Assembly: GCA_025057315.1 (NCBI GenBank)
Contig: JANWXW010000113.1
Span: 1 to 33,238, forward strand
DNA length: 33,238 nucleotides
Reading direction: 5' to 3'
Source: Myxococcota bacterium
Lineage (GTDB): Bacteria; Myxococcota_A; Polyangia; Palsa-1104; JAEUJZ01
Below, piece by piece: positions 10,586 through 11,435 of the stretch. Each line of letters opens with the position of its first letter. The first letter of the stretch is position 1. Position numbers and translations under genes: made by a program. The notes beneath the pieces are model-generated. The model did no database searches and was not told the DNA's origin. It saw nothing but the letters and a program-made list of their open reading frames with translations.

Positions 10586-10652
10586 GGGGGCGGCCAGCTC
10601 CGCAATTTTTTCCATCTGGGCATTTTGTTCTGTCATATCAGCTGGTTCGGTG

Positions 10653-10692
10653 TGTAAAAAAATTGCGCAATCTGTAAAAAAATTGCGCAATA
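10653..10692. promoter_or_regulatory. two tandem 20-bp repeats (TGTAAAAAAATTGCGCAATc/a), each with a perfect 10-bp palindrome ATTGCGCAAT; candidate enhancer-binding-protein upstream activating site
   Basis: 19/20 identity. Palindrome centres are exactly 20 bp apart. AT-rich island in a ~70% GC genome. An inverted partial copy (CGCAATTTTTT) lies at 10601-10611. Located ~190 bp upstream of the pilin gene. Confidence 0.5.
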
Positions 10693-10773
10693 AAAGCCGT
10701 GTTGGGCAGATCGGCTCCCCATCTGGACCGACGGCGGCGACGTAAGGCACATCCGAGCCCGCTGCCAGGCTGC

Positions 10774-10789
10774 CGGCACGGAAGCTGCT
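10774..10789 (+). promoter_or_regulatory. candidate sigma54 (-24/-12) promoter for the pilin gene
   Basis: cGGCACG-gaag-cTGCt; GG and GC are 12 bp apart as in the TGGCACG-N4-TTGC consensus. ~90 bp upstream of ATG 10878 and ~100 bp downstream of the tandem palindromes. Confidence 0.35.
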
Positions 10790-10877
10790 CTTCGCCGGGT
10801 GCAGAGCGGCCGGACCCCCGGGTCATCTCCCCGGCCGCGTCCCAGCAGCCCCCAGGCAGGGGCGACGAGGTCATGCG

Positions 10878-11435
10878 ATGTTTCACCGTTGCACTGCCCC
10901 CCGTGGCTTCACCCCCCGTGGCTTCACCTTGATCGAGCTCATGGTCGTTGTGGCCATCATCGGCGTGCTGGCCGCTGTGGCCATTCCGGCCTTTATGAAG
11001 TATATCCGGCGCGCCAAGACCGTCGAGGCGACCATGAACCTGCGTCGGATGTTCGATTCATCGGTCAGCTACTATTTGTCGGAGCTGGCCAGCGTAACCG
11101 GCGCGATCCTGGAGAAGCAGTTCCCGCAGACGCAGACCGCGACGCCACCAGCCAACAGCTGCTGCAGCCAAGTGGGCCACAAGTGTGCCCCCGACCCGGT
11201 GCTGTGGCAGACGCCGACCTGGCAGGCGCTGAACTTCAGCGTGGACGACCCCCACTACTACTGGTACTCGTTCGTCTCCAGCGGCGTCGCGACCACCGCG
11301 CAGTTCGATGCGCGGGCGCATGGCAACCTCAACTGCGATGCCATTTACTCCTTGCATGCCCGCCATGGACAGGTGGATGCACAGGGCAATGTCGTCGGTG
11401 GGTCGGGCATTTACGTGGAAAACCCCATTGAATAG
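10878..11435 (+). CDS. pilA: type IVa pilin (PilA-like prepilin) with duplicated leader motif
   Basis: Class III signal: …PRGFTPRG|FTLIELMVVVAIIGVLAAVAIPAF (Gly-1, Phe+1, Glu+5). C-terminal Cys pairs (SCCSQVGHKC…LNCD). Overall pattern similar to M. xanthus PilA. GAGG 9 nt upstream of ATG. Confidence 0.85.
   Translation: MFHRCTAPRGFTPRGFTLIELMVVVAIIGVLAAVAIPAFMKYIRRAKTVEATMNLRRMFDSSVSYYLSELASVTGAILEKQFPQTQTATPPANSCCSQVGHKCAPDPVLWQTPTWQALNFSVDDPHYYWYSFVSSGVATTAQFDARAHGNLNCDAIYSLHARHGQVDAQGNVVGGSGIYVENPIE
10897..10926 (+). repeat. exact in-frame 15-bp tandem duplication (CCCCCCGTGGCTTCA x2) inside the pilin leader
   Basis: Read directly from the sequence; encodes PRGFT-PRGFT and creates two consecutive prepilin-peptidase-like sites. 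Confidence 0.9.

Follow-up and report, generated by a model that had tools for sequence, protein, structure and literature searches.

Three described systems come closest to the locus considered here. In Myxococcus xanthus, NmpR, a response regulator of the NtrC family, has GCGCA-N5-TGCGC sites, two to three per promoter, upstream of sigma-54 promoters (PMC11841059); in Escherichia coli, the AtoC enhancer of the sigma-54 atoDAEB promoter consists of two 20-bp units, GCTATGCAGAAAWTTGCRCA (PMC3118216); and the PilS-PilR pair controls pilA in M. xanthus, Pseudomonas aeruginosa and Geobacter, with TGT-N11-AGA given as the P. aeruginosa PilR hallmark where it is quoted in PMC6058289. The stretch of DNA analyzed here, 33,238 nt of a contig of an uncultured Myxococcota bacterium (JANWXW010000113.1, positions 1-33,238; hereafter the window), includes an AT-rich intergenic region (10595-10880) upstream of a type IV pilin gene that has something in common with each of them: a -24/-12 promoter with several GCA/TGC-type sites upstream in myxobacterial intergenic DNA, as for NmpR; two adjacent 20-bp units 5' of a putative sigma-54 promoter, as for AtoC; and a type IV pilin gene 3' of such a promoter with upstream sites, as for PilS-PilR.

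Judging from sequence and its conservation, we consider it likely that a sigma-54-dependent transcription unit is regulated from 10595-10880. The evidence comes primarily from a comparison of seven promoters, i.e., those of the window, of three pilin-bearing relatives (L082, L083 and L085, metagenomic contigs in which a 70-73% identical pilin is followed by ogt) and of three pilin-less relatives (L135, L136 and L138). The promoter motif is kept in all of them and the upstream half-sites of the four pilin-bearing loci hold a gapless register, hence a sigma-54 promoter with an NtrC-family enhancer is well supported; that the metagenome-assembled genome (MAG) to which the window was assigned (contig JAVQWY010000014.1 of GCA_033578775.1, a 'Myxococcales bacterium') also encodes an NtrC-type activator with a Sigma54_activat domain counts in favor of this machinery. 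In the mechanism that we propose, sigma-54 RNA polymerase would bind GGCACG-N4-CTGCT at 10775-10789, and a half-site array ~95-200 bp upstream (CGCAAT at 10601, the units at 10653-10692, and GTTGGGCAG at 10701) would serve as the enhancer, on which dimers of an NtrC-family enhancer-binding protein would assemble on one helix face (sites 20 and 19 bp apart). The bound activator would reach the closed complex by DNA looping and open it using ATP, and transcription would begin at ~10799, with a transcript carrying the pilin gene and then ogt. The features of the locus are the following:

9488-10585, + strand: upstream gene for a PIG3-family NAD(P)H quinone oxidoreductase (Pfam ADH_N and ADH_zinc_N; NCBIfam TIGR02824)
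10601-10606, no strand assigned: CGCAAT, putative distal element of the enhancer and a half-site of the YGCAA type, at position -174 counted from the -24 GG; part of the inverted 11-mer
10653-10672, no strand assigned: putative enhancer unit 1, TGTAAAAAAATTGCGCAATC, with palindrome ATTGCGCAAT at 10662-10671; its TTGCG at -112 is kept in L085 and L083
10673-10692, no strand assigned: putative enhancer unit 2, TGTAAAAAAATTGCGCAATA, with palindrome ATTGCGCAAT at 10682-10691; TTGC at -92 in 4/4 pilin-bearing orthologues
10701-10709, no strand assigned: proximal conserved box GTTGGGCAG (consensus GTTGRGCAR), starting 74 nt 5' of the -24 GG
10738-10742, no strand assigned: CGACG, a semi-conserved block (CGWCG) in the enhancer-promoter interval, recognized by conservation
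10774-10789, + strand: predicted sigma-54 promoter CGGCACGGAAGCTGCT (-24 GG at 10775-10776, -12 GC at 10786-10787)
10799-10877, + strand: predicted 5' untranslated leader, its start placed by sigma-54 promoter convention 12 nt past the C of GC (+/- ~2 nt)
10878-11435, + strand: type IV pilin gene, 185 aa, first cistron (Pfam N_methyl)
11487-12080, + strand: ogt, for an O6-alkylguanine-DNA alkyltransferase, probable second cistron (Pfam DNA_binding_1; NCBIfam TIGR00589)

The promoter element GGCACGgaagCTGCT (10775-10789) lies on the same strand as the pilin gene, 91 nt 5' of its ATG (10878), in agreement with a first-pass annotation of the sequence that had placed a sigma-54-like -24/-12 element ~90 bp before this codon. 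Its GG-N10-GC geometry is exact, and 10 of the 12 specified positions match TGGCACG-N4-TTGCW. Five sites in the window combine GG and GC with two mismatches at most, and 10774-10789 is the sole intergenic one when these are set against the open reading frame map. At the level of the related loci, GGCACG[GA][GA]AG[GC]TGCT is found in 7/7 promoters, and the rest of the 687 kb of fetched DNA is free of it. GGCACG and TGCT never vary among the seven, changes fall only in the N4 spacer and at position -15, and the flanks diverge. Such near-invariance spans well-separated lineages, the Ogt proteins of which are only 57-88% identical, and sigma-54 promoters tolerate change in the N4 spacer and at -15. 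Sequence and context leave almost no doubt that the GG-N10-GC element is a sigma-54 promoter.

Upstream of this element, the sequence is AT-rich, with 38% GC over 10601-10700 (the lowest 100-nt value in the window) vs. 67.2% for the whole window. When anchored on the -24 GG, the upstream regions of the four pilin-bearing loci align without a gap over ~200 bp and share the promoter block CGGCACGG[GA]AG[GC]TGCT. GTTG[AG]GCA[AG] starts at exactly -74 in the window, L085, L083 and L082 (with a 1-nt shift in L136), TTGC is at -92 in 4/4 of these loci and TTGCG at -112 in 3/4 (not L082), and CGCAA is at -174/-175 in 3/4 (again not L082) or, with the pilin-less loci included, at -173 to -175 in 5/7. 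The half-sites of the window itself are at -174, -112/-109, -92/-89 and -73 relative to the -24 element. A 20-bp phasing of two TTGCR sites is common to the window, L085 and L083, L082 keeps the -92 site only, and the pilin-less loci have the same half-sites shifted by 1-8 bp. Taken together, the seven 145-nt regions (-200 to -55) hold 26 copies of TTGCR/YGCAA, compared to 4.0 +/- 2.1 in shuffled sequences (maximum of 13 in 2000) and to 0.25-0.9 per 145 nt elsewhere in the loci; within the window, the cluster is the densest one (5 per 120 nt vs. 0.38 expected), and all six relatives have an AT-rich array of this kind upstream of the promoter. On this comparison, the AT-rich repeats are part of a conserved array of half-sites at what would be enhancer distance, ~-95 to -200 from the predicted start.

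The two identical 20-bp units with perfect 10-bp palindromes noticed in the first-pass annotation are present at 10653-10692. Tandem Repeats Finder (TRF) returned an array with a 20-bp period (10653-10691; score 78, 2.0 copies, 100% match), and a repeat search found TGTAAAAAAATTGCGCAAT at both 10653-10671 and 10673-10691, i.e., an exact 19-nt tandem duplication. The palindrome ATTGCGCAAT (10662-10671 and 10682-10691) occurs nowhere else in the window or in the 687 kb of fetched loci, and the inverted partial copy that had been seen upstream corresponds to CGCAATTTTTT at 10601-10611, 100% complementary to AAAAAATTGCG of both units. The two units of the window agree at 19/20 positions, those of L085 and L083 at 11/20 and those of L082 at 6/20, and 20 is the top self-similarity lag in 5/7 loci; the two-unit structure looks ancestral. 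As for the palindrome, it has no counterpart in the orthologues save one TTGCGCAAT in L135, and the literature searched for ATTGCGCAAT yielded nothing beyond eukaryotic C/EBP and sequencing-tag matches. All six relatives instead contain a perfect GCA-N5-TGC dyad (6/6 core), the best copy of which is ATGCAA-N3-TTGCAT (matched at 12/12 positions in L082, 10/12 in L085, L083 and L136, and 9/12 in L135 and L138), and the window is the sole locus of the seven without it (5/6 core, 7/12 against ATGCAA-N3-TTGCAT).

We read these differences as a core that was rebuilt, in the window lineage, to two abutting TTGC/GCAA palindromes, with the TTGCG positions (-112 and -92) and the total spacing unchanged. 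The perfect palindromes and near-identical units are, on this reading, a homogenized and lineage-specific remodeling of an older two-unit enhancer, and not the conserved core of the enhancer. The earlier proposal of an enhancer at the tandem sites thus holds for the conserved half-site array and its 20-bp phasing, also seen in L085 and L083, and does not hold for the palindromes. A second repeat was observed by TRF in the pilin leader (10897-10928), where a perfect 15-bp tandem duplication of CCCCCCGTGGCTTCA (2.1 copies) yields ...APRGFT-PRGFT-LIELM and doubles the prepilin-peptidase G/F motif; the pilin orthologues (MSSKR...RGFTLIEL) are without this doubling. The second duplication suggests a local tendency to events of this kind.

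The comparison also indicates which gene the promoter belongs to. An Ogt protein search, followed by the fetching of relatives, led to three further lineages (L135, L136/L137 and L138) in which an oxidoreductase gene, an AT-rich half-site array, GGCACG[GA][GA]AG[GC]TGCT and ogt follow one another with no pilin gene, and ogt starts ~60-95 nt past the promoter motif (L135:2658-3001, L136:1127-1466 and L138:474-776, the counterparts of window 10586-11486). Linkage of pilin and ogt was also found in L139-L141, a P0005 contig and L142, which brings the tally of what lies between promoter and ogt to a pilin in seven lineages and none in three. The MAG of L138 (GCA_038231615.1) also holds two loci of this pilin family (L087 and L089): this organism keeps its pilins at other loci. 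In a neighbor-joining tree of Ogt, the pilin-less L138 and L135 are basal, but L142, which has the pilin, and L136, which has none, interleave. In these loci, ogt is the gene always linked to this promoter, and the element belongs to a conserved locus made of quinone oxidoreductase, enhancer-promoter, an optional pilin and ogt, with the pilin as a variable first cistron. The earlier view of a promoter specific to the pilin does not survive this comparison, as the same enhancer-promoter is directly 5' of ogt in the three pilin-less lineages.

Around this element, the oxidoreductase gene (359 bits for TIGR02824, cut-off 297) forms the left edge of the regulatory intergenic region, which measures 292 nt up to the pilin gene, and is also found 5' of the promoter in L135, L136 and L138. 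The pilin-ogt spacer is 51 nt long, with neither a terminator nor a sigma-70-like promoter in the respective scans, and ogt is followed by a convergent TPR gene. A Shine-Dalgarno sequence, GAGG, is at 10867-10870 (GAGGTC is conserved among the pilin-bearing orthologues), and the predicted 5' leader gave no significant fold (z = -0.7) and no Rfam match. At the other end of the intergenic region, a strong hairpin (10544-10589, -41 kcal/mol, z = -2.7) overlaps the oxidoreductase stop codon; it was rejected as a canonical intrinsic terminator, since the T-run does not begin until 17 nt later.

How close the locus is to NmpR and AtoC targets can be judged site by site. For NmpR, the resemblance is strongest in the six relatives, through the perfect dyad core and a distal site in L136 that matches 9/10 of the NmpR consensus, whereas the window itself reaches 5/6 for the core and 7/10 for the consensus, a value equaled by 108/300 shuffles. 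The window sites are TTGCR half-sites with AT flanks and a 20-bp phasing, unlike the NmpR pairs spaced 14-15 nt, and pilin and ogt are outside the described oxygen-utilization regulon. For AtoC, the units contain ATGCA...AAATTGCGCA, and AAATTGCGCA is found exactly in the window unit (with ATGCAAATTTTGCGCA in L085). However, AtoC units are inverted and window units direct, the GCA-to-TGC spacing is off by one base, the best full-length match in the window is 14/20 and is located elsewhere (at the distal site), such that only AAATTGCGCA is shared, and the window has no ato genes.

The window pilin is a member of a very large family of uncultured Polyangia and Myxococcota. It scored 62.9 bits where the cut-off is 400, through its N-terminus only, and is not an orthologue of M. 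xanthus PilA. A scan of a genome collection (exclusive of the source MAG) with the peptide-coded pattern FMKYIRR[SA]KT gave 48 loci, all from MAGs, with pilin-ogt synteny in 0/48; as a set for comparison, they brought out the GACA...TGTC class of enhancers. A scan of metagenomes with the pilin alignment keyed on the generic pilin N-terminus, with L002 and L003 as the only family members, and the L002 pilin is directly 3' of another gene. About one third of the genes of this family have good -24/-12 sites. A GAC[AG]-N4-8-[CT]GTC dyad, typically GACAAAATTTGTC, was found at 6/16 other sigma-54-type pilin promoters and at 0/7 ogt-type promoters, and several more of the 16 have TGTCACC/GGTGACA variants. 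One of the six belongs to a pilin paralogue from the same MAG (L084; GCA_033578775.1, contig 5), which is at a distance of 1 kb from genes for a HAMP-HisKA kinase and for an NtrC-type activator with receiver, Sigma54_activat and HTH_8 domains. The GACAAAWTTTGTC form of the dyad is at L084:4879-4892 and in L087, L097, L106, L109 and L130, 50-150 nt 5' of GG-N10-GC, and is a candidate site for a pilin-type (PilR-like) activator in uncultured Polyangia. None of the nearby activators matches a named NCBIfam equivalog, every score being below cut-off. As separate observations, the activator at L084:8179-9825 reads GAFTDA at the sigma-54 contact loop, where GAFTGA is canonical, and L086:3619-8066 carries five pilin genes in a row beside an NtrC-type activator (three of them clear members of this family, and two close to identical), of which the three examined (starting at 3619, 4254 and 5001) each have a sigma-54-like -24/-12 element upstream.

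Several points weigh against a sigma-54 enhancer-promoter at this locus. Taken by itself, the -24/-12 match does not exceed chance in a GC-rich window (44 matches at up to 3 mismatches vs. 65 expected), the conserved 15-mer doubles as a small dyad (GCAC-N5-GTGC) in 6/7 loci and could in principle be an operator, the enhancer-promoter interval contains no obvious IHF-like AT-rich site, and the 33-kb window holds no activator gene near the promoter. The window moreover is without the central dyad of its relatives, and its remodeled enhancer might bind differently or less well. The half-site statistics, for their part, concern a pentamer (TTGCR/YGCAA) picked after inspection of the sequences, and seven sequences that are homologous and not independent. 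Two copies of the palindrome are not remarkable either, as 10/100 shuffles gave at least two matches at up to one mismatch. Since neither the -24/-12 match nor the palindrome count stands out alone, the case must rest on context and conservation. Chance is exceeded by the exact 19-nt tandem duplication and by how closely the half-sites cluster, and most of all by conservation across the related loci.

Among other explanations, the one favored by the first-pass annotation, in which a PilR-type activator partnered by PilS and dedicated to the pilin binds the two palindromes at a pilin-specific sigma-54 promoter, as for M. xanthus pilA, is unlikely. It would agree with the sigma-54 promoter and PilR control of M. 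xanthus pilA (PMC6211767), with a type IV pilin as first downstream gene, with a same-MAG paralogue adjoining a histidine kinase and an NtrC-type activator, and with the -24/-12 sites of the family at large. Yet the same enhancer-promoter drives ogt in three lineages at which there is no pilin, and the paralogue along with five other sigma-54-driven pilins of the family have GACAAAWTTTGTC-type dyads, which none of the seven ogt-type promoters has. As other family pilins, including the paralogue next to a kinase-activator pair, use GACAAAWTTTGTC, a PilR-type activator is improbable here; the window motif also differs from the Pseudomonas TGT-N11-AGA, which is absent. Domain searches of the 33-kb window found no enhancer-binding protein, Sigma54_activat domain, histidine kinase or pil assembly gene, neither pilS nor pilR is adjacent, and the PilR-like protein that the first-pass annotation had expected locally is not encoded there; its parallel with M. 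xanthus pilA likewise fails on the PilA score. The likely partner of the sigma-54 promoter is an activator of the NtrC family that differs from the pilin-type regulator. It would be encoded elsewhere in the genome, and is probably not the PilR-like regulator of the other pilins of this family.

No more probable than a PilR-type activator is an origin of the 20-bp tandem by recent replication slippage or conversion, without a function of its own, in which case function would reside in the underlying TTGCR sites and the palindromes would be incidental. Units identical at 19/20 positions, non-palindromic ones included, the near absence of the palindrome from orthologues (with TTGCGCAAT in L135 as the exception) and a second perfect tandem duplication (15 bp) 205 bp downstream in the pilin leader, as in a lineage prone to such events, all fit this account. 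The distal CGCAA-promoter spacing is nonetheless unchanged (-174 vs. -175), hence the event replaced 20 bp and did not add 20 bp, and TTGCG still sits at precisely the -112 and -92 positions that it has in L085 and L083, which argues for functional constraint; this account also overlaps largely with a sigma-54 enhancer instead of excluding it. We give less credit still to the conserved blocks being operators through which a conventional repressor or activator controls a sigma-70-type (or ECF) promoter, with GCAC-N5-GTGC of the 15-mer as a transcription-factor dyad and Ada-box-like control of ogt as one version. GGCACGGGAGGTGCT does hold a 4-bp inverted repeat in 6/7 loci, the downstream gene encodes an alkyltransferase, and E. 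coli Ada boxes contain AAAGCGCA/GCAA, resembling GCGCAA. But promoter scans found no sigma-70-type -35/-10 pair on the + strand, and TTGCxx hexamers were rejected as -35 elements by hand check, there being no -10 at 16-18 nt. The CTGC variant of the window breaks the dyad yet retains the sigma-54 TGC, Ogt has neither an Ada N-terminal nor an AraC domain (the Ada model match covers positions 191-349 only), and multi-site AT-rich arrays 70-175 bp 5' of the 15-mer suit an enhancer better. The least credible alternative, with hardly any weight in our view, takes the palindromes for a minus-strand hairpin and T-run terminator, or for cruciform or bent DNA bound by nucleoid proteins. A terminator scan indeed gave a 12-pair stem with TTTTTTT on the minus strand, the RNA fold reaches -14.7 kcal/mol (z = -5.8), and A7 tracts are phased at 20 bp; against this, no minus-strand gene enters the site (the genes on either side both lie on the + strand), the hairpin arises automatically wherever two identical palindromes stand together and none of the relatives has it, and Rfam gave no match. 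Intrinsic curvature of the A-tracts might well aid looping, which is compatible with the sigma-54 enhancer-promoter.

Elsewhere in the window, 16254-19097 (- strand) encodes a 947-aa protein with major-vault-protein shoulder and vault repeat domains, a bacterial MVP-like gene, and 352-5013 carries a Lon protease gene (- strand) followed by ParA-ParB (+ strand), which may place the window near a chromosomal partition or origin region.

Sigma-54-driven pilin genes with upstream activator sites are textbook knowledge, and at its most basic the present claim adds one example. The locus also provides a comparatively defined enhancer-promoter for a clade known from metagenomes only, with fixed spacing and a TTGCR half-site unlike any activator motif tested, which could help assign an orphan enhancer-binding protein. 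The presence or absence of a pilin gene between a fixed promoter and ogt amounts to a small natural experiment in operon remodeling and promoter capture. It is tempting to go further and speculate, although we hold this to be rather doubtful, that the locus belongs to an undescribed enhancer-binding-protein regulon of uncultured Polyangia, in which Ogt would be under sigma-54, the pilin would be gained or lost as first cistron, and the core would have been rebuilt from GCA-N5-TGC to ATTGCGCAAT palindromes at fixed spacing. No report of sigma-54 control of an alkyltransferase was found in the searchable literature. If such a regulon does exist, pilus function (e.g., DNA uptake or surface contact) would be coupled to alkylation repair in these bacteria.

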